Part shown: piece by piece, positions 378-30,288 of the stretch
How positions within the stretch are numbered: the first letter of the stretch is position 1
Layout: the number at the start of each line of letters is the position of its first letter
NCBI GenBank assembly: GCA_008632985.1
Contig: QPGO01000366.1
Location: 1-38,498, forward strand
Source of the DNA: Psammoneis japonica
Lineage: Eukaryota
Length of the DNA stretch: 38,498 bases
Direction of reading: 5' to 3'
Translations under genes and position numbers: made by a program
Notes under the pieces: generated by a model
What the model saw: only the letters and a program-made list of their open reading frames with translations
Databases searched by the model: none
Told to the model about the DNA's origin: nothing

Positions 378-630
378 TGTGAGCTAATAGTTTAATTAGA
401 ACTGAGTTGACAACTGGCCTTGTGATGAACACAGATGAACCAATTGTGATTGCTTTGAATTTCGAAAAGGTGAGAAGACGAACGTCTCAACAAGTGTTTT
501 CCGACAAGTGTTTGAGATGTCTTCAACAATTTGGGGGCCGTACGTGCAAACAATTTGGGGCCATAGAAATCGAATGTTGACAATCGGATGTCGTAGATGT
601 CGCGAGGCATAACAGACGTCAACAGTCACA
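378..630 (-). repeat. 3' LTR (253 bp)
   Basis: Starts TGTGAGC, ends GTCACA; aligns to 6262-6515 with 11 substitutions and 1 indel. Confidence 0.95.
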
Positions 631-640
631 CTCCCTCATT
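631..640 (-). other. Polypurine tract
   Basis: Minus strand reads AATGAGGGAG directly before the 3' LTR. Confidence 0.8.
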
Positions 641-659
641 CGATGAGATGGGTCACCAG

Positions 660-1362
660 CCGAAAAGCAAACGACGGAGCTTATAGAAAGCCGCCCAGGT
701 AGCTGTTTCGTGAAGATGTCGGCTTGTTGATCGGCAGTGCGAATGGGTTGAACTTTGATGCGGCCGTTGGCGACTTCGTTGCGAAAGTGGTGAAGTGTGA
801 CGTTGAAGTGTCGAGTGCGTGGGCACATTTTGGGTGCGCGAGCGATCTCCAGTGCGGCGGAGTTATCCTCGAACATCGTGCAATGCATGATGGGTGTCGT
901 TTTCACATTAATGTTTCTTTCCTTGAGTTCTTCCAATGGGCACATGATGGATTTCACATGTCTGGCAGCTGCAGAGAGAGCAATGCATTCAGATTCTGCA
1001 CTGCTGAGAGCAAACATTGTTTGCAGCTTGGAAGCCCAATGTGGGGGCACGTTTGCAAACTTGACAGCAAAACCAGAGCAAGAGCGAGCTGCATCAGGAT
1101 GGTTTGCTGCGACAGCCTTGTCCCAGTTGCCACAAAAATCAGCATCAACATGGCAATCAAGGCCACACATGTCGTCTGGTTTGATGATGTGTCCTTCATT
1201 TCGGGTGGCCAGCAGATGTCTTCCAATGTGTTTGATGGCAGCGCCGTGAGAAGCTTTGGGATTTGACGTGAAGCGGGCGCATTGGTGAGCAGCATGTGCA
1301 ATGTCACCTCTTGTTGATTTTTCTAAGAAGTTCAGTTTTCCAACACAGAGCGGCAGTTCCAT
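660..1362 (-). pseudogene. pol: Copia RT C-terminus and RNase H (degenerate)
   Basis: GKLNFLEKSTRGDIA, LDCHVDADF (YxDAD), WASKLQT...LSSAESECIALS (EAEYIA), FEDNSAA, QQADIFTK. Confidence 0.93.
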
Positions 1363-2279
1363 GATTCCTGAAAAGGTGCACCATCCGGATCGAGTCCGAC
1401 AAGTTTTGCAGTGCTTGCTGGGAGCTCATGTGTCTTGGTGTTGTTTGAATTCAAGTTGTTGCGAGTGCCAATGAGACCAAGGTCTTGGAGAATGCTGTCA
1501 ACAAGTTGTGGTTGGCACAGTTTGAAAGAGCCATCCGGTGACGTTTCGATTTTGACGCCGAGGTGGTCGCCAATGTCGCCTTCATCGGACACACGTGTGC
1601 GTGTGCCGAGGTCCTTGATGCATTGATCAATCTCAGCATCCGAAGGATCAAACACAAGACCGTCGTCGGTGCAAACCAGGAATGTGGTCGTTCCACGGCA
1701 GAAAACACATTCGTTGAATGAAGACTGTGTGAAACCAATGTCGAGCAGTGCGTTTCGTAAGAACACAAACCACGTTCGTCCAGTGTCTTTTCCACCATGT
1801 GTGTTTTTCAATGCTTCCAAACAATGCTTGTTGCGATCCAAATTGGGAAAGTTGGTGCCTCTTGGCAGTTCCACAAAGGTGGGCCTTGGAATGTCAGCGT
1901 GTGGACATGCCAGTGCAAAGTCAACTTGCCTTGATTTCCATTTGAAGAGGATGGAGAGAACAAGGAACAGACGGATGATAGTCCAAGAAAGTGTTGGAGC
2001 ATGGGTTTCCTCGTAATGTTTTCCTTTCTTCATTTTGTGTCCTCCCAAGTTGAGTCGACTTTTCCACTTGCATGCTTTGCGTGTGCCGATGCGTCGCTTG
2101 CGCTTCATGGACCACATTGCAGGAAGAACAGTCTCACCCTGTGGTGCATCAGCCTTTTCAATAACTCGCCAATGTTCTCCCATCGGCATGGTCTTGGACT
2201 TCTTTAACCACAGCTTTCTTGAATTCGTGAGCATCTGGTTCGCGAAGAGCCTCGTGCATGCAGAGAGTGTCCGGGTCAT
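1332..2279 (-). pseudogene. pol: Copia reverse transcriptase (RVT_2), degenerate
   Basis: WSMKRKR, KSRLNLGGHKM, ETHAP, QVDFALACPHA, HGGKDTGRTWF, catalytic CTDD at 1662-1673 (YxDD), GDHLGV. Confidence 0.93.
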
Positions 2280-2592
2280 TGGAAGCTTTCATGCTGTACA
2301 AAATGGGATCTTCTAGTTGATTTCGGTCGTCGTCGATGAGATGCATGTCCTGGGCAATAGCTTCACAAGTGGTTGCAGCGTATGAGACAACATTTTGTTG
2401 ACGTTGAAGTTGTGACTCAATGGCCCTTTGGGTCATTTGGCTTTACGACCAGAGCGAGTTGTGACCGTTGGTGTTGGCGATCCTGAGTCGGCTGCAGAAG
2501 TTTCAGAAGTCTCGTTTGTTGTTGATGGACCTCCCTCATTTGGTGGAGCAGTGGTCTCTGTTTGATCCGAGTGGCTTAGAGATGATCCTGTG

Positions 2593-3700
2593 TCATTTGC
2601 ATTGTCCCATGTCAGTTGGTGGCAAGTCCGACACATCTGGAGCAGGAGCTGCAGTCACCTTGCGTCTTGACTTGTCAGTTGTTTTTGCAGAGAATCTGAC
2701 GCGTGCTTGTTTCTTGCAACGACACTTTTCTTGCCATGCACTTCGAGGGATGACGGATGAGCCTTTGACAGTCTCAAATGGGTCGTCAAATTTGACATGG
2801 TGTTGTGGAGAGGCAAGTCCTGTTTCAAGGTCAAGGACAAGTGCCACAGATCTGGCGTGTCTGGGTGAAGGTCCGAGGTAAATGCCCACTCGTGCTCTTG
2901 TTTCCCACTTTGGCAGATGAGAGCCTGACTGTGACTTGTTCTTTAACACATGCACAGGACATCCAAAAGAGTGGAAGTGTGCGAAGAGCTCCATTGGAGA
3001 TTCGTTTCCAGGAGATCTGGCGGCATGATTGTGCACGTTGTTGGCATGGCGCACAGCACATGGCCACAAGTGGTGATCAACAGCGTTTGGCCAGCAATGG
3101 TGAGCGTGCACAAGTTGTGTTCTCGCTTGCTCTTGTAGGTCTCTAATGCGTTTTTCTGCTCTGCCGTTCTGAAAGTGTGCATTGACTCCGCAACAGGTTG
3201 TATGCTGCCCTTGTTGACGTCCCGATTTGATGAATGCGTTGTCGCGAATCGTCCATTGTCGGCGTGACAGTGTTGGAGACGAACTCCGAGGGAGCAGGCA
3301 AATGCTTCACAAGCAATTTTGGCGTGCAGCGTTTCTTCTGAGGTGATCGATTTCTGCAAGCATCCGAAGGACAGGTCGCTGTGGTGGTCGACGAAGACCG
3401 TGACGCAGCGACATCGTTGACATGTTGGCATGCCCTTGAGTTGAGCTGTCAGTCCAGGCGTGGTGGCGTCGAGTTGGTCGACAGACACCACTTGGCCGGC
3501 AGCAGTGGCTTTGAAAATTTTGGTTTGTTGTGTGCCCTTGGTTCGCCATGGGCCTTGGTGGCTTTACCATGGCGGCATGCAGCGCACACGGGTACGCGGC
3601 AATCAGCGAGGCGCTTGGGTGGGTCTCCGGAGTTAGCCACATGCTTGTGCGTGAGAATGGCAAGTGTCCGAGTCGGCAGTGCCAAAGTAGTAGTTCGTTG
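2593..3700 (-). pseudogene. pol: Copia integrase with GAG-pre-integrase zinc finger, frameshifted
   Basis: CAACRHGK, VSVDQL, TVFVDHHSD, HCHADNGRF, LWPCAVRHA, FGCPVHVL, GIYLGPSP, SPQHHVKFDD, spread over several frames. Confidence 0.9.
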
Positions 3701-4217
3701 GAGGAGTCAGGTCATCTGGGAATGTTTGGTCCTCGACGACTGGTGCGCCAAAGTTTGCATCCGAGAAGTCCACCGTGTTGGGTGTCGTGGCTTCTGGTGT
3801 AGCCGCAGTTGAGTTTGTAGGCGTTGTAGCAGCTGTTGAGTTGCTGTTATCGATGGCCTCGTTGAACGTGTGACGTGCAGTTGGTGCAGTGGTCTGTTCT
3901 TCAGGTAAGTCTTCAGGTTCGGGTTCGATGATGTGTACATTTTGAAATACTTTAGGTTCTCGTGCTTGCGAGTTGTACTCACGCTCAAATTCGTTGTGCT
4001 TGTCATAGGATGGAGCGGAGCGGAAGACTGGTACGTTTGCCTTGGAGAGCGGCATAGTGCGAGAGTATTTCTCGTCTTGCCATCGAAGTATCGTTCGATC
4101 GTGAAGTGTCTTTTCATAAGTACCATCCGGATTGTTGGAAATTGGTGCGAGTACTTGTGCCAAGTGTTGTGGCGAGAGAAGACGAATTGGAAGCGTAGGT
4201 ACGTAGTACGTGTTCGG

Positions 4218-4260
4218 NNNNNNNNNNNNNNNNNNNNNNNNNNNNNNNNNNNNNNNNNNN
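4218..4260. other. Assembly gap (N run)
   Basis: 43 N. Confidence 1.
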
Positions 4261-4798
4261 TAACTTTGCCCTTGAAGGTCGATTTGGCGTTGCCACTTGC
4301 AGCTTCCACGACAACGTTGACCTCAGTTGGTGGTTCAATGAAGTCGTCTTTGTTGTTGGTCATGCAGTGGGAGGCATGGTTGTCAACTCCGATGTTGAAC
4401 GAGTCTGTGTCGAAGTTGTGATCGTGTTGATCATTGCAGTTACAGCCATGGGAGCATGATGCAGTGTGGCATGAGGCGTGCTGCGATTTGAACCGTGTGA
4501 GTCGGCAAGTGGCTTTGTTGCACATGATGAAGTGTCGGCGTTTTCGTCGGATATAACGCATGTTGGTCTTGAGACAGTTTGGTTTCCTTGGTGGTCTACG
4601 ACTTCTCAGGAGACATTCTGTCATTCGTCGTAACCAGGAACGCAGGAGTGGAAAGGAGTGGAGCCAGTTCAGCAGTTCCACCATTGCGCAGCAGATCATG
4701 TTGAGCGCACAGAAGAATGGCAGGAAGACTGCGCACACACCACAGAACAGCCACAGCCGCAAGTGCAGCTTGACTTGCAATGCGGTGCTGACGAGCAC
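4261..4798 (-). pseudogene. pol: Start of pol: hydrophobic linker plus aspartic protease
   Basis: FDTDSFNIGVDNHASHCM (motif core at 4361-4390) occupies the copia protease D-S/T-G position; same frame as gag, separated by one TGA. Confidence 0.7.
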
Positions 4799-6169
4799 TC
4801 ACTCTTGATCCGATGCGTCTTGTGCGCCAATGTTTGCCACAGAGGCAGTTGGGTCAGATTCGGCCTTGTCCTTGATGGTGGTGCAGTCCTTGGTGAGGTG
4901 AGCAGACCAATGCTCGTGATGTTTGCACCATTTGCAGGGTTTGCCCTCAACAGTCTTGGTGTGTGATTGTCCGTCTTTAGGAGCCGTGTTGCGCCAGGCT
5001 AGCTTTCCGTAGAAGAGTTGTTTCTTGCATCCGTTGGGTGGGATCTTGAACTTCTGGCACTTGTTGTGATTGTTGGAACCCGATTCTTTTGTTTTGTTGC
5101 TCTTGGTGGAGCTCTGAGCATTCCTGTTTCTGCTGCTGGCAGAGCGTGGAGCGTTGCGAGCTTTGTTGTCGCGGAGAGTCTTCACTTCGGCTTGTGGAGC
5201 TACGATGGTTTCTTGCTCTTTCGTTGGTGCCATCCACTTTTCAGATTCGATGAGGATCTTGCACTTGTTTTCAGCCTTGAGCATGAGAGCATGCACGTCA
5301 AGATCCGATCCATCTTCGCAGTCACTCTTGCACTTCTTGATGGACTCGATGAATTCTGAGTCGGTGCACGTGAGGCAAGCCTTGAACACGTTGTTCAGCA
5401 GGTCGGAACTGGTGTGGCCGCGAGCAGCAAGTTTCTTTTCCAAAGATTTGACGTGGTTGTTGAAAGTCTTGATGTTTTGACCGTCAACTGCAGCCATGCA
5501 AGCGTCTGGATTGCCCATTTGGTCACGGATCACCGAGACAGCAGCCCTTGTGTCGACTTGAGCCTTGGACAGAAGAGCTTTGAGGTGGGCCACACCGCAT
5601 TCCTCATCTCCAACAGTGCACTGAGCCTTTTCTTCCGTTGCCATGATGGTCTTGGAGGCCTCGTCTAGGGTGCTCTGGAGACATGCGAGAAGCTGGTGGT
5701 TGTTCTGCACGTTGCGTTGCGCCAGATTGAGGCAAGCAGCAGATGCGGTGCGAATTTGTTCAGCTGAGATTTGTCCACACTCAGTGAGCATGTCCTTGTT
5801 CTCGACTGGCAAAGCAGGAACTGCGCCATGGTTGATGTCAATCGTGAGGACTTCGTTCCAACCATTGGCTTTGGAGCGGACTGCGAGTTCTTCGAGGAAG
5901 ACTGGGATGTTGGGCGATTCAAGACTGAACTGGGTGTCCAACGGCTTGGTCGCGTCTACGAAAACGAGCGCGTCGCCTTTCTTGGTGTGGTCTAAAACGT
6001 CTGCACGGGCCAGTGCTGGTGACTTGGCGAAAGGTCCTGGAGCAGCTGCTGCTGGTGGTGCAGGCATGTTGTTCACAATCGGCTGGACAGCCGCCTGGAC
6101 AGCTTGTGCGATGGCATTGGCGAGCGCGTCAGCGCCGGGCCATGACGAGGTCTTGAAGTTCCTGAGCAC
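4799..6169 (-). CDS. gag: Copia Gag (open frame but heavily missense-mutated; true start uncertain)
   Basis: 456-aa ORF after the 5' LTR with C-terminal knuckle CKWCKHHEHWSAHLTKDC; only one Tyr in 456 aa. Confidence 0.85.
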   Translation of the reverse strand: MLRNFKTSSWPGADALANAIAQAVQAAVQPIVNNMPAPPAAAAPGPFAKSPALARADVLDHTKKGDALVFVDATKPLDTQFSLESPNIPVFLEELAVRSKANGWNEVLTIDINHGAVPALPVENKDMLTECGQISAEQIRTASAACLNLAQRNVQNNHQLLACLQSTLDEASKTIMATEEKAQCTVGDEECGVAHLKALLSKAQVDTRAAVSVIRDQMGNPDACMAAVDGQNIKTFNNHVKSLEKKLAARGHTSSDLLNNVFKACLTCTDSEFIESIKKCKSDCEDGSDLDVHALMLKAENKCKILIESEKWMAPTKEQETIVAPQAEVKTLRDNKARNAPRSASSRNRNAQSSTKSNKTKESGSNNHNKCQKFKIPPNGCKKQLFYGKLAWRNTAPKDGQSHTKTVEGKPCKWCKHHEHWSAHLTKDCTTIKDKAESDPTASVANIGAQDASDQE

Positions 6170-6245
6170 GTCTTTGTGCTCCTCTTGTCAAACGGCGCAT
6201 CTTGTTGGTTTGGAGAGAACGTTGCTGGTTCGATCAAGAACACTT

Positions 6246-6261
6246 TGTCGCAGAGGAAGCG
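6246..6261 (-). other. Putative primer-binding site complementary to the D-arm of initiator tRNA-Met
   Basis: Plus strand 6246-6263 TGTCGCAGAGGAAGCGTG versus eukaryotic tRNA-iMet nt 8-25 TGGCGCAGCGGAAGCGTG (16/18); abuts the LTR. Confidence 0.6.
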
Positions 6262-6515
6262 TGTGAGCTGACAGTTTAATTAGAACTAAGTTGACAACTA
6301 GCCTTGTGATGAACACAGATGAACCAATTGTGATTACTTTGAATTTCGAAAAGGTGAGAAGACGAACGTCTCAATAAGTGTTTTCCGATGAGTGTTTGAG
6401 ATGTCTTCAACAATTTGGGGGCCGTACGTGTAAACAATTTGGGGCCATAGAAATCGAATGTTGACAATCGGATGTCGTAGATGTCGCGAGGCATAAATAG
6501 ACGTCAATAGTCACA
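6262..6515 (-). repeat. 5' LTR (254 bp)
   Basis: TGTGAGC...GTCACA, copy of 378-630. Confidence 0.95.
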
Positions 6516-6520
6516 GATCG
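6516..6520. repeat. Target-site duplication GATCG (right copy)
   Basis: Identical to 373-377. Confidence 0.92.
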
Positions 6521-6830
6521 TTTCGATCACTCTTTTGTCGTGCATTCAGAAAGGCAAGCCATGAGGCGTCTAGTGTGAAGGATAAGGCAAAAGTAGAATC
6601 TCATATGGTTAATAAAAATGTGTCGGATTGTTTGACAATGTTTCTTCTTCCCTTTGACCTATCTGATGTACAGAATACGGTGCATCATTCTTTCCTTCTT
6701 GTGTCGTGTGGTCACAAATGCAAACCACAACGGCTCTAGAGCAAAGGCTAAGGCAAAAATAGAGCCGCATATGAGCAATGTTAATATGTATGATTTAATG
6801 GTAAAGTTTATTCTTCCTTTACTGCACCAT
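6521..6830. repeat. Degenerate tandem repeat, rest of unit 2 and unit 3
   Basis: aaggcaaaagtagaatctcatatg (6584-6607) and aaggcaaaaatagagccgcatatg (6750-6773) match aaggcgaaagtagaaccacatgtg (271-294). Confidence 0.65.
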
Positions 6831-7048
6831 AAGGGGCCGCTTTATGTCGATTTGTCGATGCATCCGTCATGGTCGGCGGCGGCAGAGCGTGGCTTTCTAC
6901 CGGCATCATATATCTGGTTGAATGTGGGAAACAGCACACCCGCCTATACAAAATTAGACGGGAATTACCGCACTGCACTCATTTTTTGTTCCTTCCCCTG
7001 ACCCCTTTCAGTCGTTCCTTCCCGCTAAATTACCCTCATTTCCCGGGT

Positions 7049-7110
7049 ATTCCCCAAAAGGGTAAGGCAATTCCCCCTTACCCTTGCCATTTTGGGGAAT
7101 CCCCAAATGG
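7049..7110. repeat. Nested inverted repeats, probable transposon sub-terminus
   Basis: attccccaaaa (7049-7059) pairs with ttttggggaat (7090-7100); aagggtaagg (7058-7067) with ccttaccctt (7076-7085); ccattttgggg-aat-ccccaaatgg (7087-7110). Confidence 0.7.
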
Positions 7111-7689
7111 ATGAAACCAAACCAAGCCTTGAGTTTGCCAAGGCGATGAACAAGTGCAGCACTCCACCGCCATCTTGTGACTGCTGGTGCGTTGAACCTT
7201 CGTCATCCCACACACCGCCGACCACCGACCTGGACCACGCATGGAAACAACATGATCAATCATTGTGAGCACCTGTGTGCATGCATGTGAGTGAGTGCGG
7301 CAAGCAAAATTCTGCTTGATGTGCAGTCTGTCCACACCCAGGCAAAAATCTTGAAATGAAGAAAGGTCCCTGCTGCTGCACGTGCTGCAAGTGTGCGGCA
7401 TCCAACAAAGATCCCGGATCCTTGGATGCAGGTTCCTTGTTGGGTGTGGCTTGTGGCTGGAATTGATTGTTCGAAATTTGGTGCAGATTTCTGTGTGAAC
7501 AGCACAACACGTCACCAAGTTGAAGTTCATTTCATTGGAGGGAAAACAAAAAGAATGAGAATTGTCACGTGCCTGGTTGCTCAACGACGACATTCACAGC
7601 TTCTTGAAAATCCTTGGCTTTTGGCACTGCAACCTGTGCCCACCTTGCCAACCCACCTGCGAAGCTCCCTGAGGGCCGAAGTGCAAAAA

Positions 7690-9694
7690 CCCATCATGTC
7701 TGATGTCCAAAAATTGTTCGCATCAAAACACATGCATTGGCTGTTCTTGGATTCTTGCGTTCAGAATCAATGGATGCCAGCAGACCTGTGGGCAGAGCAC
7801 CACAATGCAAAATTCAATGTCAATGATGAGGGGGTGCAAATCATGGGCAGAGAGTTGAAGAAGCAGTGTGGAAGTGTCGGCGGCATTTCAAATGTTGCAA
7901 AGGAGAACAATGTTGTTGCTGACGAAGTGAGAATCTGTGCAAAACGGAGTGCTCATGTGGCCTTGAGAAGGGTGGAAAACCATCACAACAAATGTTTCTT
8001 TTTGTCACCATTGGCAAGCCCCATTGGCACCTTTGTCCACCAGCAGCAACTGGCAATGACTCTGTGGAAGTGCGGCTGCAAAGTGGATCTGTCAAGACAA
8101 AATTTGGAAGAACTGCACTTGACCACACCAAAATGCCACCCAACACAGATCCAGACACACTCAACAGTGACAAAGCACAACAAGCAAAGAAGAAACAACA
8201 TCTTTCTGAAGAAAAAGACAATGATGGGATGTCAGTTGAAGAGCTGGATTCTGTCAGGTGACAAATTGCACCTCGACACACGACTGTTGGGATTCGACTC
8301 AAGTGCACAGCATTTTTGCACCGACCTTGGTTTACCCAGATGATGTTGATGTAAAGACAGTTGCACAAGATCGCGCTGACATTTTGTCTGCTGTTGTCAA
8401 TCATCCACATGGCTTTAAGTCAGTGTTGCCTGATCAGGATGACAAGAATCTGGCTGCCGACTGTGAAAAAATGTGTCCATTCGGCATCGTGCACTTCACA
8501 TCATGGCAGTGCTTCAGGCTGCACTTGACAACCTCAAGGGGGGAGGAAAAGAGATTGAGGGCAATGTGACTTGGGGCAAGTGCTGTTGACATGCTGCAAA
8601 AGATGGGCTCCAGCCCCAGGTGGGTCTTTTTGTGACATTTGGCCTGCACAATTCTGCATGCAAGCTCTGAAGCAAAATTGTTCAGTGATTAAAATGCAAA
8701 TGATCGCCAACAGAAAAAGAGGCAATTTTGTGAATGCATCTCCTCCTCCACACTTGAAGTGCATTGTTCACATTGTGCCCGGGTGCGTTCTTCAGACATT
8801 GAAGAACACACCCAGTGCATTTTCATTGTCACAAGTGCAGAAAATAAAAAGCCTTTGGCTTCACAAAACAGGCAGCAGAGAACAATTTTTTACAATGCAA
8901 CACGCAGAAATGTGTGCGCAAAACATGCAACGGATGACGAAAAACATTTTGTCACAGGTCAGCAGTGCGAGGTCCCACCCAGAGCTGGAATGCATCAAAA
9001 AAACTGGAGGAGGATGGTGTTGTTGCCATCACGAACTGGCTTGCTGTGCAGCATTGGTGTCAACATTTGGCACAAGTGGGAGACCACTTCCCTCAAAAAA
9101 CCAAAAGAGGCAAGCCTGCACTCCCACCTTTTTTCAGCGGCAATCCTGAAGTCAAGAATGCATTCATTTGGCAAGCAGCGCGCAATCTGAAAGATCTTTC
9201 AATTGAGTTGATGCACCACAAGAGCCTTTGCCAGAAGACAATTCCTCCTGCACTGCTGCTGAGCACAAAGAACGATGTTGTTGTGGAAGATGTGATGAAT
9301 TTGAACAAACTGTTGAGTCTGCTGGCAAACTTCATTTGCCAACTGAAGAAGAGGAAGATGCCAAAAGTTTGTTTCTGAAGCAGTTTGGACCAAGGACACT
9401 TTCCAATTGACAGCAGCATGATGGGTGCGTCTTCTCAGATTCAAGTGTGCTCACAGGATGAAAAGCTTTTGTGTTGATGGTTGTGAGAAGCCTGCCATGA
9501 AGGCGCATCAAAAACAACTCACCAAAGAACACCTTGAGTTGGAGACAAGGTGCCACAGGTGGGTGCAAGTTCCGCTGGAAGAAGCAACGGAGCTCATGAA
9601 TGCAGACTCCCTCTTTGCAGTGCACTTGGTTGGGCAGCTCAATCACTCATTTTCAGCACTCATTCCAGAGGATGGAGAAAGTTCATTTCCCTGA
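7690..9694 (+). pseudogene. Degenerate DNA transposase, probably IS630-Tc1-mariner-like (5' part; catalytic region not seen)
   Basis: 9422-9590 reads WVRLLRFKCAHRMKSFCVDGCEKPAMKAHQKQLTKEHLELETRCHRWVQ, fitting the W..LG(F/W).Y...K..YxDGHE...YR motif of such transposases once Cys/His are reverted to Tyr. 5' extent approximate. Confidence 0.55.
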
Positions 9695-11039
9695 ATGGAC
9701 TGGATTCAAAATTTTCCTGAGACAATGCAAAACAAAGTGTCTCTACAAACCAGTTGTTTGAGCTGTCAAAAATTGTGCTGCAATGATGGATTCTGTTGTG
9801 GAATGAGGCATGGGCAGGAAACTCTTGTTTTGGCGGGAAACTTCCCTCCAACATGGCCCCAATTTGCTGTCCGCAGCCACCCTCCTGAACTTCTGAGTTT
9901 GCTTCCCACAAATCTTCATTGCCAGCCATGCTGCATGGTCTCTTGTGTGCTTTTGCATTCAGCTCCTTTTGGCCCCTCATGTCCAATGGGGGGAAGCCGC
10001 CCTTGCCATCTCCTGGAACAAGGATCAAGAAGGTGGCAACCAGGATGGCTGTCAGCAGCAGCTGGGGTGCTTGCCTTGATGTTGTGGCACGCAATGTTGC
10101 CACGGAGCTGAGAAACTTTCTCTCTCTACAAACCAAGTCATTCATGCAGAGAGTCAACTTTGTCACAGATGCCGCAGAGCTTCTGCCGTCTCCCAAAGCC
10201 AAGCAACTCATTGCCTTTGTTTGTGACAACTTTGTGAGCCAACAAGCAAAACAAAGCATGATGGGAGAAGATTCCTCCCATGCTCCAAATGCTGCACAAG
10301 CAGAACAAGTCCAAAAGGACTGCAATCCTGTGTCCAAGACAGCTTTGGCATCGGCCACATCTGCCCATTTGACTCCTGCTCTTGAGTTGTTTCCTGGAGA
10401 TTTTTTCCCATTCTTCAAAGCTGCCCAACAATTTCTTGATCCAGATGCTAAATCCAACTGCAATGACAACAAGGCCAAGAAGAAGAAAAATCTGTCTGTT
10501 CCTGCAATGAGCAAGTTTAGCCACAAAATGCCGGGTTGTCACTTCAAAGCAAGAACATTGTTGCTGCACCATCAAGGACGAGCCCCTGCAAGTTGCAAGG
10601 GATCTGTGGCCATGATGGTGCCACAACCCCAAAACTTGGTGGGAGCACATTCTTGCCAAAGGTTCATGGGGTCTTTCTCCATTGGCAAAACTGCACGTGT
10701 GCAGCTCATGACAAAAAATGACCCAAATGCACCACCAAAGGACACACAGAGAAAAACTGTGGACCACTTTTCATCATTGGAAGATCTGCCCACATCCATG
10801 TTGCAGCTCAAAATGCAGGAGCTCCACAACAAGGTTTCGAACAAGATTTGCCACTGCATCACACAGAGACAAAGAGAGGTGGCAACAATGGCCCACCCTG
10901 CATCAGAAATCTGTCTTGATGGAAAATCATCTGACACAAAAATCTCCTGCACACAAGACCCAGTTTTGCACTGTCACAAATGGGGTTTGCAGGTTCCAGA
11001 GGGTTTCAATGCAGAGCCCGTTTCTTTGGAAGTTTGCAC

Positions 11040-11525
11040 TTGACAGCCACCTTGGCCTTCACCACTTGTTGCACCCACCTCAGTTTGTTCTTGGTCAACA
11101 ATTTTGACTCTCAGGATTTAAGATGCAATCCCTCAACTTGTGGCAATGATTGGGATGTGCCAGCCACCTGGAGGAGCTTGTCCAGTTGGAATGCCACAGC
11201 CTTGGGATTCACCATTGGCTTGGGTGCCATTTTGATTCTGGTGCTGACATGATTCACCACCTTGCAAGTTCTGTTGGCCACCACAGCCTCCACAGCCATG
11301 ACCACCACAACCACCTTGATTACAACAGTTTCCTTGTTCTCAACCTGGGTGTCCACCTTGGCCACCACAACCTTGTGGACCACAACCTTGACAGCCGCCT
11401 TGGCCTCCACCACGGCCATTGTTGCATCTACCTCAGTTTGTCCTTGGCCAACAATTTTGACTCTCAGGATTTAAGATGCAATCCTTCCACTTGTGGCAAT
11501 GACTGGAATGTGCCAGGCATCTGGA
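11040..11525. repeat. Direct repeat ~135 bp (11040-11172 and 11389-11525)
   Basis: Both contain caacaattttgactctcaggatttaagatgcaatcc...acttgtggcaatga; duplicates the zinc-knuckle segment. Confidence 0.88.
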
Positions 11526-12340
11526 CTCTGCTTTGACACAAGTGCCATTGCTGTGGCTGCATCTTGAGGCTTGGTTGGATGAGAAAGTTCCTTTCCTCTT
11601 CTCATCTTGTTGTTTCTTGGTGTTTCCCTTGTCTGCAAACAACTTCTTGTTGTTCATGCAACTGGCAATCTCCACCCAGCTCTGGCATGCTTCTCATGCC
11701 AGGGTCAAAAGGAAAACTGTCAAAAATCATCTTCTTCTTCTGGGCACCTTTGGCTTGTGAGACATGTTTCCTGGGAGCTTGTTTGAACAATGCATCAACA
11801 TCTCCATGCAATCTGCACATGCCTGCACTTAGGATTGAAAAAGGTTTTTTCAAAGTTGGCAAGCACCCAAGCATTGCATCATGTGCCTCATTGTCAGAAC
11901 AAGACAAACAAAAGCAACTCATCTCTTGATCAAAGCACACCACCATTTTCTGAGGGTCTGGAATCGAATCAGTCAAATTGGCCCACACTTGTCCTCAGCA
12001 GCATCTCCGTCAGCACTTCTTCAAAATTTTCGAACAATTCTGCACCAGTCATGAACTCCAATTTTGCAGCAATCTTACAAGTTCAATCTTCAACAAACAG
12101 CAGTGATTCAATGCCGTGAAAGACATCAAAACAAGGACACTTCTTAGCATGAGCAGTGCCATCATCATGCAATTGAGTTGATTTTACGCTCTCCAAGTGA
12201 GAATGCTCAAATTTTGCCTCACAGTCAATGCAGGGCTCCTTCAATGATTCACTCATTGTCAAAGATCAAATGCAATCACACAATGATCCTTTCTGAGGGC
12301 TCCACCTTTCTCTCCAATTGTTGCCATTGGATTGCCAAAT
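11040..12340 (-). pseudogene. Degenerate retrotransposon Gag-like ORF (CHHC knuckle, Gly/Arg-rich tail), possibly Ty3/gypsy
   Basis: GAELFENFEEVL, DAMLGCLPTLKKPF, KKMIFDSFP, CLAHSSHCHKWKDCILNPESQN, then GRGGGQGGCQGCGPQGCGG (eroded RGG/YGG). Confidence 0.5.
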
Positions 12341-12992
12341 CTTGTTCTTGGCAATTGTGTTGTCTCACTCCTTTTCTTGTGCTGAATGGCCCAGTTTGCT
12401 GTTTTTGCTTGCAGTTCTCTTTTTCTCTGTTTCAAATGTTGATCAGTTGGGAACAACCCCAGTTTCCATCCAATTCCTCTGTTGACTGCAATTGCAGTGC
12501 AAGGTGAAACAAGACAAAGACTTCAGCATCAACAGATTTGTGAGGAGAGGCCAAGGCAATCAAGGTCATAAACAGCAAAGCCCATTGCAGTGGCTTTCTC
12601 TAACTGCCGATGCATTTTTTGATGCTGCACGTCAGAAACAACAGGTGCACAACACTGCAACTTTTGTGGTGGCATGCCGCAGGCACTTTGCAAAATGTCT
12701 TGGCTGCATTCCCATCTCCTTGCTCTCTTTGAGCACACTTGAATGCTGTTGTGTTGCTTGTCACTGCATGTGCAATGTTTGCCATCAGCACCATCATCAT
12801 GGTGTGCACACAAACAAGAAAACCCTGTTGTTGACTTGATGACACGAAACATGACAACAGCCCAAGAAAGCAAAAGTTCAGATGCAAGCAGAGAGCAGCA
12901 TGATGACAACAGTTCTTTTTGAGCTCCATTGTTCACAAGCTGTTGCCATCTTTCTTGTTGTTTGTCATGATTGCTGCCATGGGACAGGCATT

Positions 12993-13317
12993 GATGGGGA
13001 TCTGTTCTGGTTGGATGCTGCCAACTGATGACAACAATGTTTGCATGAGACACCCTGTGTGCAGTTGGAAACAAACTGCTTGTCAATGACATTTTTCAAA
13101 ACAAATTTAACTCAACCAGCAGGATGGTGCCAAGCAGAAATGCTGCCCCCAGGGGGTTCTGTCAGATGAGCTGTGAATGACTGTGTGACACTTTGAATGA
13201 GATGGGGATTTGGGCTGGATCTGCAATCTGGCAAGGCAACAACAATGTTTCCATGAGACACCCCATGTGCAGTTAGAAACAAACTGCACATCAATGATGT
13301 TTTTTGAAAATGAGTTT
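12993..13317. repeat. Direct repeat ~115 bp (12993-13108 and 13201-13317)
   Basis: Shared gatggggat...acaacaatgttt.catgagacaccc..tgtgcagtt.gaaacaaactgc...tcaatga. Confidence 0.8.
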
Positions 13318-16132
13318 CACTGCAGCCACCTGGCAACTCCCCTCAGTCGCTGTTGCTGCTGCCAGACAATTCACTTGAGCAGCCCGTCTCATCCTCGCTG
13401 CTCCCCAAATGACAGCTGGAAAAGTTTGCAGCCTTTGTCACCCACCAAAACTCTGCATGCTGATGGGTGCACTCATTGAGGGTTTTTTTTGTTTTGTCAC
13501 CCAGCAATCTGCCAACACTGGCATCAAACATTGACATCTTCTCCAGCAGAGAAAATCTTTTGTTGTCAAGCTGCTCTTTTCACCATTGCATCAATGAAGT
13601 GCACGTGCAAGAACATTGTTTTAAAGGCTGTCATTGCCCAAGTGCCAAAAATGCAGAAAGCAAACTGCAGATCACAGAGTGAGGGGGGGGTGCAAAAGCA
13701 GTGTTCAGAGAACAGAGCTCATGGCAAAATCTGAAAAAGTGACAAAAGAGCATGCATCAAAAACAAGAGCAGCCAGATCAAGCCACAAAATTGACAAGAA
13801 CAAGAGGAACAAAACAAAGCAGATGCATGCCATTGCAGCATGCCTTGCCACATGTGGGTGGCAGATTTGGATCCATGTGATGAAAAAGCTCCACCTTGTA
13901 AAATTTGGCATGCAATGATTTGAAGTCTCTGCAGATGCTGTGAGATCATGATGCAAGCAGGAGAGGCTGGCCGGCAATGGATCTGACACTCATCAAACAT
14001 GGCCCATCTGTCCTGTTGTTCAATTGTGGCATGTCCATGGCAGAAAGCAACAATCTGATGTGGTCAGCTGTTCTTGAGAAACATGGTGTCAGTGCAGGAC
14101 AATGGCTTGCATGGCATGTGCAATGCCTCAAAGCAATGGATGTGCCAGCATTGTGAGAGATCATTGAGAGGGTGATTTCCAATGGCAAAACCCTGTCTCC
14201 TGTCTGGTTTTGCAGGAAACACCAAAGGGGGTGGATGCAGCACCCACAATCAGTGGCATGAGGCTGGAAATTGAAGCACCAGAGACAAGCATCATGTCAC
14301 AAACTTGGCTTGCAAAGGAGTGCCTGGTGATCCAGAGTTGGACCCACCTGCAAACAGGGATCCCTTTGCAAGGACAAGATGATCCACACCATGCAAATGG
14401 TGCAAACAGCCACTGTCACATGGCACAAATGAGGTTTAGAGAAAATGGCTTTGTCAACAACATGGCAGTCAAACCATTGGCAGACATCCTTGGGTGGAGC
14501 ATCTGGATCAAACAGACACTTGGATTGTGGAGGCATCAAAGATGTCACAGTGTTGGGTGTGCAGGACAAAGGGGACATTTTTGATGCAGCGCAGTTGCAG
14601 CCAAGCTCATCACCAACAAGGTCCTTGAAATCTGCCATTGCAGAAGTGCCTGATGTTGTCACAGGTGGAGGTGCTGATGTGCATTTTTGTGGGAATGAAT
14701 TGTCAGAGAGTTTGTTCCAATCCTGGCAGTTGCGTTTCATGCTTGGGTCAAAGTGCATCTCCACAGTGCTGGTGACAATGGTCACTTTCTGAGCACAATT
14801 CTTTGCAGTCAAACATCATCTGTCATGAGAGACATCATCAACCACTGGAGTTCAGACAAGAAGAGGAGCCCCTGCTTGAATGGAGATTCCACTGACTTGG
14901 CATCAGCAGGGTCTCATGTCTGTGGGATGAGGATGTTCTTGAGGATGTGCTCTCTTGACAGAGGTGGCAACAATGCCATCTTTGGATTGGGTGTGTTTGG
15001 CATCATCATGAAAGGATCAAGATCAAGTGGCAACTTGCCACAAACTTCACCCATGTGCTTTGAGACCTCAGAGAGATGTGGGTGTGCTGGAAACATGATT
15101 TGAACCTCTCAGAGGCTGTTGGTGGTGTGCTTTTCACTCTCAGTTGGCACCATGGTTCTCAGGTGCACAAAAAGGTGGTCATGCACAGCCATTTGATTTG
15201 CACTCAGGAAAAGCCAATGTTGCCATTTGTCAGCAAGCCACTGGTGCCACTCCAGTCTTCAACAGTGATGCCAAGTTTGTTGCAAAAACCAGCTCAGTGG
15301 CACAAACGGGATGATGTTTTTAGCACTGTTTTGTGTCTCAGAAAATGCCTTGGTTCTGAGAAAAAGGTGCTTGCGGGAGCAGAAAAGTGAGGCAGACTCG
15401 ATGGGCTCACAAAATGATCAAGGCAAGATGGGATTTGCAGCGCAAATGAACATGCGATGGCACAAGGCCACAACCTAACGGAGCAGCGACAGCAAGGGTG
15501 ACACACGTGTGAGACCTCCCTGCAAACCGATGACAGTGACAACACGTGTGCTAGCTAAGAAGAAAAAATGAGAAGTAAATCTCGGATGGAGATCTGCTGT
15601 GTCCGAGCACCGTACATCACTCGGTCAGCTGACATTGAAATGAAGCATTGCCGATTGCTTTGATGGGGGTGGCAAATGTGACTCACCCTCTTTAGACATA
15701 GAGAATGTGGAAACGACACGGAGTAGAAAGTAGAATGTATTGATAACAATAATTCTGTACAAAGGAGAGCTTCATAATGTGACATCACTAGTCATCTGGT
15801 CCGTTTTGTTTGTCGTACAATACATACTTTTGGTGGAGCGTCGCCGGATGATAGATGGACAGCCTGCTGTTTCAATTTTCAATTATGCTAGGTCAACACC
15901 AGACCTCCCATGTTGGGAGCGGTTGGCATAATGTTACTCAACGCTACTCTGGCTATCTATCTCTATTCTACAGTACCTAGTATGCAAGGCTTCTCTCTCT
16001 AGAGGCTACAGTAAGTCGTATCACGGTACTCTTATAATGCCCGCGACGTTTGATCTCGTGCAGTCAATGAAGCTTGTCTTTGAATATGACACCGTTCAAG
16101 AAAACAGGAAGGAAATCCCATACCAGTGTCTG

Positions 16133-17717
16133 TCATCTGCGATTGCTGCGTTCGTGTTGAGCCTTGGCGGCTTTCTTCAAGTAAGGTTGCATCTCCTTCT
16201 GCCTCTTCGTTCGACGCTTTTCGGCAACAGAAATCTTGTTCTCCACGAGATTCTTTAGTTGGTCCATCTCCTCTTTGCTCACTTCTGGCCAGCATTTTGG
16301 ATACCACGGTCCATCTAGCTCAGCGACTTCATCCGCGCTACGTGCACCGTTTTCTTCGTTCCACAAAACGCTTAATTCCGTCCCATACCCACGGGGTATT
16401 ACAGAACTTCCCGGGCCATACCGTATGGAATACCTTCGATATACCAGAGCCTTGTCGTGGTCGTGGTTATGGCTTTGTACCACACTCCGTTCAAACGGGA
16501 CCGTTCGATGAAAAACCCATCTCTCGTGAAATATGATGTCTCCTCGTTTCAAATCATAAACTCGCCTGGTCTCTTCCATGCGTCGATGGATATGCGGTGC
16601 CTCCACCTCCAGGTTACATGTACCTGCACCAATTCGGTTCTCAAACATGTCAGCCACTGACTGAAATCCTTCTGTCGGGAACGTAAGAGTAGAACCTATT
16701 GCACGGTGAGCATCATGACGCCATGAGGCACTGTGTGAGCCTACCGCCAGAGCGAATCCACCCCCATTCGCAATGGGCATATCGTCGATGGCTATCCAGG
16801 CATTCACACCGGGAGAAGAGGCAGTTGCGGGCCAGAAGCCTAGATCATCGACGTGCCAACCACAAACGTACTCTTCGTCGTCTTTTGTAAGAAAAATATC
16901 CCTAACGCGCAAGCAAGAGAAAGCTTAGCATGAACAACAAGATGGCTTCGAGCAACACACGACAAATTAGACAAACAATTTCGTCACCTCATTAGGCGCA
17001 GGGTTTGGTTCTTGTCAGTTGATAAGCCAAGAAGATCAGCCGCAAACTCTGGTACAGCAGAGGTGAGAGCCACTTCTCTGAATGCAGATAAATCGCGGCT
17101 TTGTCTCTCATCGTCAGAAGGTCCGACATTGTCCTTTTCTATTTCACCGTTTTCGTCGTTTGAAGATGGAGGATCAAGAAAAGCAGCTCCCATTCGAACC
17201 ATGTGAAACTGTGTATTGGATCGTTTCTGATTCCGCTTCTCGTCAACAATGCGTTGCTCACTAACGAGCTGGGCAGAAGCATGTTCTAGTCGTAGAAGCA
17301 TATCGTCCGTCAATAGGCCCCTGATAGCAACGACACCATCTTTTGCAAAGGCGGATCTGATATCGTTCGTAACTAGCTTCCACTTCCTACAGTCACATTA
17401 TGTATGATTGGATCATCAATTTCTGGGGCCTTGCCCAGGGGAGCTCGGTATTTTAGTCGCGTCTCGAATGCATGAAAAAGCTCATCATCGTTGGTTACAA
17501 TAGCTACAGCCACTGCAACAAGAAGTACAGCAAATGCCATGGAAAGCGCCCATTTCGAATTGCCAAATAAAGCGATTCGATCTGTCAATTCGTACAGAAA
17601 CTGCGATCTCTTGTCCTCCTCGTCTTCAAACAATGAATCTTCCTCCTCCTCTTCCGAAGACAAAACGTCATGGGAAGAATCATCGCCACTCTCGTCTCCA
17701 CTGCTGCCATCATCCAT
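16133..17717 (-). CDS. Phytanoyl-CoA dioxygenase (PhyH)-like 2OG-Fe(II) oxygenase with N-terminal TM segment
   Basis: FAKDGVVAIRGLL, GWHVDD (HxD), VNAWIAIDD, GSH, GDIIFHERWVFHRT; intron 16902-16987 joins in frame (MR|DIF); one probable indel near 17390; start at MDDG assumed. Confidence 0.82.
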
Positions 17718-18285
17718 TGTTCGGTTCTGACGGTGTAAGGTTACCAGGTATGATGGTGCTTCAAAGTGTAATACTTGTAACCGTATTATTTGCCACATGT
17801 GCGGTGCGGTGTTTTTCTTCATCGTGTACTGACCGTCGTTCGCTGATTTGTCGATCGGCACTTTATTCTCAGCGTCCAAAGGATGCACCTCAATGGCGAG
17901 TGCGACGCTGTAACGATAACGATTTGGCACACGATACGTAGTGCACTCGTTCTATACACTACCGCAGGAAGCATATGATTATTGATTGTAACATTGATTT
18001 AGTCGAACGACGATGCTGTCGATGTCTTCGCAATTCACAATGGCCGATGGCGGTATGAGAAATGGAGCAACAACAACTTCAACAACTCATTCAAACACGT
18101 AACGGCGAATGCAAAATAGATCCGATGAAGAGAAAAGCATTAATCTTGCTGTAGATAACCTCACCTGAAACTCCAAGGACTATTGGGACTACCGGTATGA
18201 TACAGTATTAGGTCGAGTAAATGCTCTTTTCAGCAGAGATTGTCAAAGACGATGACACGCCACCTTGGAACATGATGTCACATTG

Positions 18286-18372
18286 TACAATGTATTGATA
18301 CTCGGTGCTTCCTATGGATCCCTCTTGGCAACAGAGATTCTTCTTGCCGGCCACAAAGTTACTTTGGTAGAC
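18286..18372 (+). pseudogene. Isolated N-terminal Rossmann-fold fragment (ketopantoate-reductase-like)
   Basis: YNVLILGASYGSLLATEILLAGHKVTLVD is a clear beta-alpha-beta start; similarity ends after ~30 aa. Confidence 0.55.
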
Positions 18373-18837
18373 CGAGAGCCACGGTTGCGGCGCTGGTTGA
18401 ATTGCTTGTTCATAATCGAGCCGAACGTTAGCATCGTATGCGGGTGGAGCTTGCTGCGCCTCAATTAGGCACAAAAGCCCACTGCTGGGACGTTCGGCGG
18501 CACTATTGCAAAGGCGATCCGCCCCTGCAGTTAGCTATTTCGTCTTTTTGCAATACTGTTCTCAGGTCCGTCAAATTGGTGAGAACTGCGGGCCCTCAAG
18601 ACTTGGTATCTATTGTAATTTCAGATGAGGGACTCACTGTGTCGGCGAATGCCAGAATTACCGTGAAGCCTACTTCTCAACGGCTTTGACGCAGGTCTTG
18701 CCAATTGCTTTGCCGACTGGAAGAGCAGTCTTCCCCTCAACAGCGCGTCTCATCCAGGCAGCTGCTCGGACCAACCAGCAAACGCTAATATCCCGGACTA
18801 CTTTGACTTTCGGCAAAGAAGTCTATTCCCTACCTTG

Positions 18838-19277
18838 ATTCTCTTCAAGGCATTGTCGGCTTCTGCCATGCAAGTTGCAGAGAATGCAGGTATCGAAGGA
18901 GCCGTGGTTCTAGCCAAGATTCAATCTCTTACGGAAGAAAAGGGAGTAAGTTGTCTTTGTATCCGGCCGCCCTCTAGTATTGTTATGAGGCATCCTCACG
19001 GAATCTTCTCGTTATCCTCTGTCCTTGCAGTTTGGTTGGTGCTGGGATGCTGCCACCCTTGAATGCTGCGACTTAATGGAGAGAGGTGTCATAAACCCAG
19101 CCAAGGTGACTATTAACGCCATTGAAAACTCGGCCAGTGTGGCTGGATTGGTTCTCACAACTGAATGCCTACTAGTGACGGAAATTCCGACTGAGATGAG
19201 CGAAGAGGATAAGCAGAGGATGTTTGACGAAAAAAGCCACGGGAGCAGGCATTGGTCCCGGTATTCCAGGTGCGTAG
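18838..19277 (+). pseudogene. cpn60: 3' fragment of chaperonin 60 (GroEL/Cpn60)
   Basis: QVAENAGIEGAVV, intron 18946-19030, then GVINPAKVTINAIENSASVAGLVLTTE and a GAGIGPGIPGA tail after a frameshift; the N-terminal ~80% is absent upstream. Confidence 0.85.
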
Positions 19278-22026: not shown

Positions 22027-22712
22027 AGATTGTCCGCAGCCATACGCCACTTATCGCTACCTGTCTCATTACATGCTGTCTCTGCGGTCAAGACGATTGA
22101 TCTCCCTCTGAAGAGTCGTGAGTGTTAATTGCCAAGGATTCCCGACTCTCGTCAATTACGATGCAGTAGGCAGGAGCAGTGACCAATAAGATCGCACTAC
22201 CAAAATTGCAAAAGGCGAGAACTGTTGGACAAAGTTGATGCTTGTTGGACAACACGCTAAATGAACAGACCCTACAGAATGAGTGTAAAGGTACGAGCTT
22301 TCATCATGTATTTGAAAAACGATTAGCTTCAAAGTCGCCATATGCCTAATTTCATAACACATTCACACAGATTATCCGCAGCCATACGCCACTAATCGCT
22401 ACCAGTCTCATTGCATGCTATCTCTGCGGTCAAGACGATTGATCTCGCTCTGAAGAGTCGTTAGTGTTAATTTGCAAAGGGTTCCCGACTCTCGTCAATT
22501 TCGATGCAGTAGGTGGGAGCAGCGACCAATAAGATCGAACCACATAAACTACAAAAGGCGAGAACTGTTGGACAAAGTTGATGCTTGTTGGACTACACGC
22601 TGAATAAACAAACCCTACAGAATGAGTATAAAGGTACGAGCTTTCATCATGTATTTGGAAAAACAGTTAGCTTCAAAACTCGCCATGTGCCTAACATCCT
22701 AACACATTCACA
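22027..22712. repeat. Tandem duplication, 2 x ~342 bp (22027-22368, 22369-22712)
   Basis: Direct alignment, e.g. caaaaggcgagaactgttggacaaagttgatgcttgttggac in both; roughly 85-90% identity by eye. Confidence 0.95.
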
Positions 22713-25249: not shown

Positions 25250-25360
25250 CTGTTGCCAAAATGTCTGATCACCAAAAACAACATTTAAGCAATGAAATGT
25301 GCCGTTGTTCGTGACTGAAGGAGATGTTTTGAAACAACCCGAAGCGCGCGGGCGATGGGC

Positions 25361-25368
25361 GCGCGAAA
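25361..25368 (-). promoter_or_regulatory. E2F-like site TTTCGCGC (second copy 25495-25502)
   Basis: Matches TTTSSCGC about 110 and 250 bp upstream of the 25249 ORF start. Confidence 0.3.
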
Positions 25369-30247: not shown

Positions 30248-30288
30248 ATTTTCTATTTTGTAAGAGCTAACACACAGTACACTGTCAA

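Follow-up and report, generated by a model that had tools for sequence, protein, structure and literature searches.

TpA-confined transitions between the long terminal repeats of a copia retrotransposon in Psammoneis japonica

The two long terminal repeats (LTRs) of a retrotransposon are identical at insertion, and such a pair is a natural clock that starts from zero. What, then, has this clock recorded near one end of contig QPGO01000366.1 of Psammoneis japonica (assembly GCA_008632985.1), where two LTRs differ by 11 substitutions, every one of which either exchanges the dinucleotide TA (TpA) for CA or TG or belongs to a single site that reads CA in one LTR and TG in the other? Our analysis covered the contig over its whole length of 38,498 nucleotides, called the window below, and the retrotransposon lies at 378-6515. 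We consider it highly probable that an integrated copia element has been mutated in place by an element-directed process that turns TpA into CpA or TpG. According to this account, a Ty1/copia retrotransposon would have inserted in minus-strand orientation, duplicating 5 bp of its target, and the integrated chromosomal copy would then have been attacked by a process converting TpA to CpA or TpG through A:T>G:C transitions on either strand. The process would be aimed at the mobile element and would end at its edges. It would have removed about 80% of the interior TpA and killed the element, for example by replacing the catalytic Tyr of the reverse transcriptase (RT) with Cys, and the LTRs would so far have lost 8 and 3 of 16 TpA, accounting for all 11 LTR differences.

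The element and the differences between its terminal repeats

A repeat search, a MAFFT alignment and a script check delimit a direct repeat pair, the LTRs at 378-630 and 6262-6515. The features of the element, in window positions, are the following.

373-377, unstranded: left copy of the target-site duplication, GATCG, identical to 6516-6520
378-630, minus strand: left LTR, the element's 3' LTR, 253 bp; 8 TpA kept, 8 of 16 inferred original TpA lost
631-641, minus strand: likely polypurine tract GAATGAGGGAG (minus-strand reading), a sequence reading with putative function
631-6261, minus strand: internal region, Ty1/copia, with broken frames; RVT_2 and integrase SH3-like domain
1332-2288, minus strand: reverse-transcriptase open reading frame (ORF) with RVT_2 (Pfam) and an FLVCTDD box
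2593-3111, minus strand: integrase C-terminal SH3-like domain, upstream of the RT in the element sense, which is the copia gene order
3565-4217, minus strand: TpA-normal island inside the element, 26 TpA, observed/expected ratio (o/e) 0.72; abuts the N run
4218-4260, unstranded: run of 43 N inside the element (gap or masked stretch)
6262-6515, minus strand: right LTR, the element's 5' LTR, 254 bp; 13 TpA kept, 3 of 16 inferred original TpA lost
6516-6520, unstranded: right copy of the target-site duplication, GATCG

Both LTRs read TGTGAG at the 5' end and GTCACA at the 3' end, and the perfect 5-bp target-site duplication stands directly outside them, so that two direct LTRs, TG..CA ends and a 5-bp duplication together give the structure of a Ty1/copia element. 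The gene content agrees with the structure: an RVT_2-type RT (PF07727, E 7e-26, 1332-2279 on the minus strand) is preceded in the element sense by an integrase domain, the retroviral-integrase SH3-like domain PF25597, matched at its gathering score (E 4e-6). Copia polyproteins of ~1,390 amino acids (aa) from public data align collinearly along 4594-703 in tblastn, needing several frame changes, and the longest stop-free stretch of the element is 462 aa, compared with ~1,390 aa in the homologues. In the RT catalytic box, FLVCTDD, the Cys codon TGC at 1671-1673 occupies the place of a Tyr present in 40 of 40 homologues. The purine tract adjoins the 3' LTR, and the sequence after the 5' LTR (from 6261 downwards) has no TGG start. 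By these sequence features, 378-6515 is a dead Ty1/copia element in minus-strand orientation, and the right LTR is its 5' LTR. As a side observation, 642-659 on the minus strand, a short way ahead of the purine tract and the 3' LTR, carries a sequence beginning TGGTGACCC that resembles the complement of a tRNA 3' end, that is, a primer-binding site.

In a global alignment the two LTRs are separated by one 1-bp indel and 11 substitutions, every one of the latter a transition. Nine of them have TA in one LTR and TG or CA in the other, at these positions:

TA-type sites, left LTR/right LTR: 386/6270, 388/6272, 404/6288, 416/6300, 452/6336, 491/6375, 547/6431, 613/6498, 623/6508

The other two are adjacent and make up one double site, CA (505-506) in the left LTR and TG (6389-6390) in the right. 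Each LTR carries 12 CpG, none of which is involved in any difference. The initial annotation, made from the letters of the window, had counted the same 11 substitutions and one indel with nine TA versus TG or CA, which our alignment reproduces exactly, and its "about a dozen" identical CpGs correspond to these 12.

Could so restricted a set of changes be ordinary neutral divergence whose pattern is coincidental? The small number of differences, 11, gives this idea what room it has. Only 60 of 251 sites in the left LTR and 65 of 252 in the right (24-26%) can be toggled by a transition between TA and CA or TG, which excludes a chance pattern: the probability that 11 of 11 changes fall on such sites by chance is 1.5e-7 to 3.4e-7. 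Counted per base, 11 of 64 TpA bases changed, compared with none of the 442 other bases (Fisher p=6e-11), a rate contrast of at least 25-fold (95% bound). The changes are transitions only and all on TpA. The earlier statement that the rate lies far above background is borne out by the same counts. A duplication elsewhere in the window serves as a control:

22027-22712, unstranded: tandem duplication, period ~342 bp, ~91% identity, in TpA-normal DNA

Its 31 differences comprise 9 of TA type, 13 transversions, 7 other transitions and 2 of CpG type, a spectrum different from that of the LTRs (Fisher p=3.9e-5). As a second control we drew on 79 related copia loci from metagenomes, of which 46 measure at least 4,500 bp and 12 of these have a terminal repeat pair; nine of the 12 pairs are 100% identical contig-end overlaps and hence uninformative, and in the three non-identical pairs 23 of 217 substitutions are TA-type, with one locus (L020) giving 204 of the 217. 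Both control spectra, in-window and metagenomic, look ordinary, and we regard coincidental neutral divergence as having practically no chance of being correct. A second duplication in the window (11066/11419) was discarded as a control on account of its poor global alignment (138 indel columns), and Tandem Repeats Finder returned 0 rows.

The double site had been ascribed at the outset to an ancestral TA or CG hit on opposite strands, and the counts allow a choice to be suggested between the two. Changes are found in 11 of 32 TpA copies and in 0 of 24 other CpG copies (p=0.0013), and since none of those CpG copies changed, an ancestral TA is favoured; per-site losses of 0.5 and 0.19 over 16 sites lead one to expect about one double hit. 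An ancestral TA that changed once in each LTR, on opposite strands, would thus fit better than an ancestral CG.

Direction, timing and extent of the TpA loss

The LTR pair by itself leaves the direction of change ambiguous, and the first guess from its alignment was repeat-induced point mutation (RIP), which was ruled out by the composition map and the polarity tests given below. In fungal-type RIP, or a process like it, C:G>T:A changes at CpA/TpG create TpA, and the LTR copy with TA would be the mutated one. The dinucleotides involved are the same, and diatoms have DNMT4 enzymes that are related to fungal RID and of unknown function, according to the part of the source consulted (PMC9998398).

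Three comparisons bear on the direction. First, the element was read against conserved protein columns, using 40 of 54 copia homologues (those longer than 1,100 aa) and only such columns as hold 8 or more homologues with an agreement of 70% or higher, 448 columns in all. At 20 conserved Tyr columns this copy reads Cys 9 times (TGY), His 6 times (CAY), Tyr twice, Phe twice and Leu once; reverse changes are absent (C>Y 0/11, H>Y 0/22), and so are stops of the RIP type (Q>stop 0/18, W>stop 0/15). Val to Ala via GCA (3 columns) and Ile to Thr via ACA (2 columns) are consistent with T>C at TpA, and when the threshold is relaxed to 50% agreement, 35 Tyr columns give Cys 12, His 11, Tyr 6, Phe 5 and Leu 1. 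Second, contigs of a public sequencing run, X1, and of X2 were compared with the window over 4300-10000; 40 of 315 differences are listed, none in the right LTR. Among these 40, all from X1, 15 have TA where the window has CA or TG and 0 the other way, 11 have CG where the window has CA or TG and 4 the reverse, 4 are other transitions and 6 are transversions. Third, TpA o/e in the 79 related metagenomic copia loci runs from 0.35 to 0.96 with a median of 0.63, compared with 0.23 in this element overall and 0.11-0.13 in its interior.

Polarised in this way by the Tyr columns, the other copies and the family baseline, TA is the ancestral and CA/TG the derived state. On this reading, no fewer than 16 TpA were present in the LTR when it was inserted, of which the left LTR lost 8 and the right LTR 3. 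For RIP, every one of these comparisons points the wrong way: changes of the C:G>T:A, CpA>TpA direction are not what is found, the stops and the His or Cys to Tyr changes that it should leave are missing while 15 of 20 Tyr columns have gone to Cys or His, and the 15-to-0 count among the listed differences opposes it as well. TpA is depleted rather than enriched, with a TA/AT ratio of 0.27 for the element and of 0.01-0.10 for the old blocks described below and (CA+TG)/(AC+GT) at 1.39-2.36, and the double site would require two hits on one CpG, yet no other CpG copy changed. We consider RIP very improbable here.

When did the TpA loss take place? The intact GATCG duplication, for which a chance 5-bp match has a probability of 1/1,024, makes both LTRs parts of one insertion, and since LTRs are identical at insertion, their differences arose in the chromosome. 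The changes are post-integration events in chromosomal DNA. Under the TA-loss reading they affect both LTRs (8 left, 3 right) and both strands (on the plus strand, 5 A>G and 6 T>C), the left LTR showing 3 A>G followed by 5 T>C, and Tyr has gone to Cys (A>G in the element sense) 12 times and to His (T>C) 11 times, nearly equal numbers. Editing before integration, either by an ADAR-like A>I activity on the element RNA or by deamination of complementary DNA (cDNA) during reverse transcription, deserves consideration, as depletion is much stronger in the interior than in the LTRs, with an abrupt step at the edge of the right LTR. Editing of retroviral cDNA by APOBEC3 spares the LTR region, which would be in line with such a step. 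Editing confined to one strand of RNA or cDNA does not fit, however, because both senses of change occur within one LTR, both LTRs have changed and Tyr>Cys is about as frequent as Tyr>His; an ADAR-type pattern would be A>G on the transcript strand only, with the LTRs alike, and here the 5 A>G stand beside 6 T>C and the LTRs differ. Blocks of the window that bear no retroelement signature are equally erased. ADAR does favour a 5' U, but in the chlorarachniophyte Bigelowiella natans a TpA-only hypermutation arose in chromosomal, single-copy viral DNA during culture, according to the abstract, Results and Discussion of the preprint, on which all our statements about it rest (Mettrop et al., bioRxiv 10.64898/2026.01.13.699255, 2026). 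Pre-integration editing is, in our judgement, a quite unlikely source of the LTR differences.

The mutation of an integrated copy also bears on its apparent age. The Kimura two-parameter distance (K2P) is 0.0455 over all LTR sites, and 0 of 221 non-TpA sites changed, with a 95% upper bound of 0.0135, so that an LTR-based date would be inflated at least 3.4-fold. The initial annotation had proposed that the changes followed integration and were neither RNA editing nor RT error, and that LTR dating would overestimate the age; the first of these claims gains the backing of the target duplication, both LTRs and both strands, and the second that of the two distances.

How far the TpA loss extends is seen from the composition of the window, in which, besides the element interior, three further blocks are affected by the same erasure.

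1-377, left flank: 25 TpA, o/e 0.71; normal
631-3500, copia interior: TpA o/e 0.13; CpG o/e near normal (0.65-0.97); CA+TG raised
4262-6261, copia interior: TpA o/e 0.11; CpG o/e near normal (0.65-0.97); CA+TG raised
6516-7080, right flank: 34 TpA, o/e 0.78; normal
7100-15450 and 25750-28900, old blocks (1-kb windows): TpA o/e 0.01-0.14; CpG o/e 0.03-0.47; CA+TG o/e 1.7-2.0
23500-25700, block in the same state as the copia interior: TpA depleted; CpG near normal; CA+TG raised
15500-23000 and 29000-38498, gene regions: TpA o/e ~0.6-0.7; CpG ~1; CA+TG ~1.0-1.2

The erasure stops at the element edges. Outside the 3565-4217 island the copia interior keeps 34 TpA, compared with ~178 expected at the family median o/e of 0.63, and the neighbouring DNA is ordinary, with the caveat that the old depleted blocks carry no recognisable transposon domain. 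CpG decay is slower than TpA loss and becomes visible only in these older neighbouring blocks. On the plus strand of 631-6261, TG outnumbers CA over most of the copia interior (mean z +1.4 per 250 bp); this bias could be native to the coding strand, or the mutator could act unequally on the two strands. The Tyr>Cys and Tyr>His counts show no such bias.

The old blocks consist of complex, non-repetitive-looking DNA deficient in TA and CG, and they carry long ORFs that are stopped by TGA only. The block at 7100-15450 holds 0-5 TpA per 250 bp where 14-22 are expected, with CA+TG about doubled, and no Pfam domain was found in 13 ORFs tested within 6636-14815. The contig depth of X1 reaches 14,000-68,000 over 8502-9074 (up to ~68,000 at 8693-8883), and at least this part is a very abundant repeat. 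The block at 25750-28900, poor in both TpA and CpG, includes an N run at 27558-27884. In the block at 23500-25700 there are minus-strand ORFs of 283 and 424 aa, the block has no Pfam match and the 424-aa ORF (24110-25384) found no homologue in the search; it may be a young unknown element or a host gene under attack. We also observe that 6592-7164, in the right flank, has normal TpA content and yet a raised X1 contig depth (~3,200-5,000); some repeated DNA there may not be depleted, or may be young.

Flank preference, chemistry and known systems

The bases next to TpA appear to influence its fate (R, purine; Y, pyrimidine). Among the TpA that survive in depleted blocks, YTAR makes up 32 of 70 and RTAY 4 of 70; the corresponding numbers for normal DNA are 151 of 802 (p=1.7e-6) and 246 of 802 (p=1.4e-6). 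At the asymmetric LTR sites (RTAR/YTAY), 7 of 8 changes follow RTA>RCA, which is equivalent to TAY>TGY. The ratio of the products RCAR+YTGY to RTGR+YCAY rises from 1.15 in normal DNA through 1.24 in young blocks to 1.47 in old ones, a comparison that takes normal DNA as a stand-in for the ancestor. A local flank rule of this kind explains the order of changes in the left LTR as well as strand-coordinated tracts would, and the preference suggests that an enzyme may be at work.

Which base such an enzyme would act upon is not distinguishable from sequence, because A>G at TAY is T>C at RTA on the other strand. Our favoured chemistry, held tentatively, is deamination of adenine to inosine at 5'-TA-3' by a DNA deaminase of the ADAT/TadA type; its mirror image, a modified thymine at 5'-TA-3' pairing wrongly with G, is a possible though less favoured candidate. 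More broadly, the class of other chemistries includes oxidised or hypermodified thymine at 5'-TA-3' (of the 5-hydroxymethyluracil (5hmU) or 5-formyluracil (5fU) kind, made by TET/JBP-type enzymes) leading to T>C, and error-prone repair in heterochromatin with Pol eta-like WA>WG errors (W, A or T). Thymine chemistry fits the flank preference equally well, T>C at RTA being the mirror of A>G at TAY, and in dinoflagellates TpA and TpC are the preferred places of 5hmU. The errors of Pol eta tend to fall on WA motifs, but a Pol eta-like process would also strike ApA and give transversions, while 0 of the 11 LTR changes are transversions or lie off TpA. Nothing in the window shows base modification, and for B. 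natans an adenine deaminase of the ADAT2 type is preferred by the authors, from structural prediction only (Mettrop et al., 2026). We hold this wider class to be a doubtful alternative to adenine deamination, if one worth keeping in view.

A process of the kind described here has been reported once before, in B. natans; the lineage, the target and the degree of erasure differ. In mutation-accumulation lines of that alga, 231 of 302 nuclear mutations fell in two integrated viral regions, and 230 of these 231 were A>G or T>C, all of them on TpA. The hypermutation occurred de novo in chromosomal DNA, in some lines only, at ~6e-7 per site per generation, ~1000-fold above background; TpA-poor genes of B. 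natans are enriched for reverse-transcriptase and DDE Pfams, and an ADAT2-like deaminase was proposed from structure prediction (Mettrop et al., 2026). The hypermutation of nucleocytoplasmic large DNA virus (NCLDV) and virophage sequences in B. natans resembles ours in being almost exclusively A>G/T>C, all at TpA and yielding TpG or CpA by strand, in striking foreign or mobile DNA only with the rest of the genome ordinary, and in leaving a long-term depletion of TpA with CpA and TpG enrichment in clusters. Its rate lies orders of magnitude above background, and here the LTR pair gives at least 25-fold as a lower bound. Unlike in the present case, the host there is a rhizarian, not a diatom-like stramenopile, the target is integrated giant-virus and virophage DNA rather than an LTR retrotransposon and unclassified repeat blocks, and the evidence is mutation accumulation rather than the comparison of an LTR pair, homologues and paralogues; the NCLDV region has a TpA o/e of 0.45, and the erasure here goes further, to 0.01-0.13. 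The flank preference found here (YTAR survives, RTAY is lost first) is not seen in the abstract, Results or Discussion of the preprint, whose supplements may bear on it. Full-text literature searches, including diatoms plus RIP, found TpA erasure not described for diatoms and the B. natans preprint as the sole match. By analogy with the TpA-only hypermutation of B. natans, we infer that the process in our window is enzymatic and directed at silenced or foreign DNA.

Two better-known kinds of system invite comparison. RIP inactivates transposons and distorts LTR dating, as the process here does, and it requires duplicated sequence, a premeiotic stage and RID. In Neurospora and other ascomycetes it also resembles the present case in being transition-only, bound to one dinucleotide and sharp-edged in repeats or mobile DNA, as far as the consulted part of the RIPCAL description goes (PMC2621366). 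The direction is the opposite, RIP creating TpA by C:G>T:A and turning Gln and Trp codons into stops, while A:T>G:C changes here destroy TpA and turn Tyr into Cys or His; in B. natans, moreover, a single-copy region was mutated, and in asexual lines (Mettrop et al., 2026). ADAR, which hyper-edits double-stranded RNA from repeats in animals, and APOBEC3, which edits retroviral cDNA, share with the process here deaminase-type transitions aimed at repeats or retroelements, and ADAR has a preference for U 5' of the edited A (Mettrop et al., 2026). They differ in acting on RNA or single-stranded cDNA, before integration and on one strand, whereas the copy here was integrated and shows changes on either strand and in either LTR, and APOBEC changes, C>T/G>A, go in the direction opposite to ours.

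Let us suppose, then, that the likeness to B. natans reflects common descent. Diatoms and chlorarachniophytes might share an old, enzyme-based defence, spread across the stramenopile-alveolate-rhizarian (SAR) lineages, which rewrites 5'-TA-3' to TG or CA on both strands of silenced mobile or foreign DNA by way of a DNA deaminase that makes inosine from adenine, or of an enzyme that modifies thymine, with RTAY as the preferred context. Such a defence would act faster than CpG decay, end at element edges and partly spare LTRs, and it would be a functional mirror image of fungal RIP. This broad scenario is speculative, and we would call it possible rather than probable.

Points that do not fit, neighbouring genes and implications

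Several observations weigh against the account of an element mutated in place. The interior keeps only 34 of ~178 TpA, compared with 21 of 32 for the LTR copies (p=3e-7), and the step at the right LTR is sharp, with 1 TpA in the 300 bp inside and 13 in the LTR itself. The LTRs could have been partly spared, or some of the loss could have been inherited from a damaged source copy mobilised in trans; because the interior is far more depleted than the LTRs, part of its loss is possibly older than the insertion. Within the element, the 650-bp island at 3565-4217 is not depleted and keeps Tyr in 2 of 4 Tyr-majority columns, perhaps because the targeting was patchy, because an unmutated copy converted this stretch or because the assembly was joined here. 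A Pfam search of ORFs in the depleted blocks and flanks gave 0 matches out of 18, so that no transposon protein was recognised there. The flank rule finds no support in the Tyr codons, where His follows R/Y in 6/5 cases and Cys in 5/7 (p=0.68), and strand-coordinated tracts were not found, the variance of the TG-CA imbalance being 1.26-1.44 in old blocks and 1.22-1.38 in normal DNA. Finally, X1, the sole public DNA run found, contains 34% of the sampled window words, and at 23 of the 40 listed differences no X1 depth carries the letter of the window; X1 does not independently confirm this copy, and it may be the very sample from which the window was assembled. Among the public runs found, none of RNA matched the window.

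These last points raise the matter of an artefact, be it a chimeric or collapsed assembly, a recombinant of two copies or the miscalling of modified bases at TpA. Such an origin would draw on the N run inside the element, which adjoins the TpA-normal island, on the low share of window words in a run that may itself be the source sample, and on the listed differences that lack depth for the window's letter. At 17 of the 40 listed differences, on the other hand, X1 carries both the window's letter and the other one, and the TA and CA/TG forms therefore coexist in that sample. The sharp-edged confinement, the fixed replacements of Tyr by Cys or His and the frame breaks, of a sort usual in genuine decay, also speak against an artefact, and the matching target duplication ties the LTRs to one site, which argues against a recombinant of two elements and against the case, raised beforehand as one that would overturn the observation, of LTRs that come from different copies collapsed in assembly. 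An artefact therefore seems to us quite improbable, and mutation of the integrated element in place remains the account that we prefer.

Apart from the element and the depleted blocks, the window carries host genes of normal dinucleotide content.

16133-16924, minus strand: PhyH-like dioxygenase
29063-30247, plus strand: pfkB-family kinase ORF
36576-37184, plus strand: UCH ubiquitin hydrolase

The kinase ORF has 262 relatives at E<=1e-20, the best of them 48% identical, and all 9 relatives with an organism name are from diatoms: Fistulifera (2), Mayamaea, Seminavis, Conticribra, Stephanodiscus, Thalassiosira, Cyclotella (CCRYP) and Epithemia. The host of the window is, by this evidence, a diatom or something closely akin to one, though distant from every named genome; a protein atlas gave mixed taxa for the RT and no usable taxonomy for the kinase. 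At its source, one of the kinase relatives from Seminavis bears the label ubiquitin hydrolase, which may reflect the same gene neighbourhood. At 33295-34929 on the minus strand, within the eukaryotic gene region, two adjacent ORFs carry the domain set of a bacterial-type DnaG primase (CHC2 zinc ribbon, DNAG_N and Toprim); the two are presumably parts of one primase that is sent to an organelle, separated by an intron or a frame change.

Irrespective of the details of the chemistry, the LTR pair has served as a clock that recorded a TpA-specific A:T>G:C mutator acting on an integrated transposon at no less than 25 times the background. In a genome where this takes place, the practical consequences are several: ages estimated from LTR divergence are inflated, here by a factor of at least 3.4; dead elements lose TAA and TAG stops, so that long spurious ORFs persist in them; Tyr in transposon proteins is systematically replaced by Cys or His; and repeat annotation based on homology fails on the old blocks. 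The concrete sites and the flank preference, with RTAY lost first and YTAR last, can be used against candidate enzymes. The finding would extend the phenomenon from a rhizarian alga to a diatom-like stramenopile and to retrotransposons, and it hints at a widespread genome defence.

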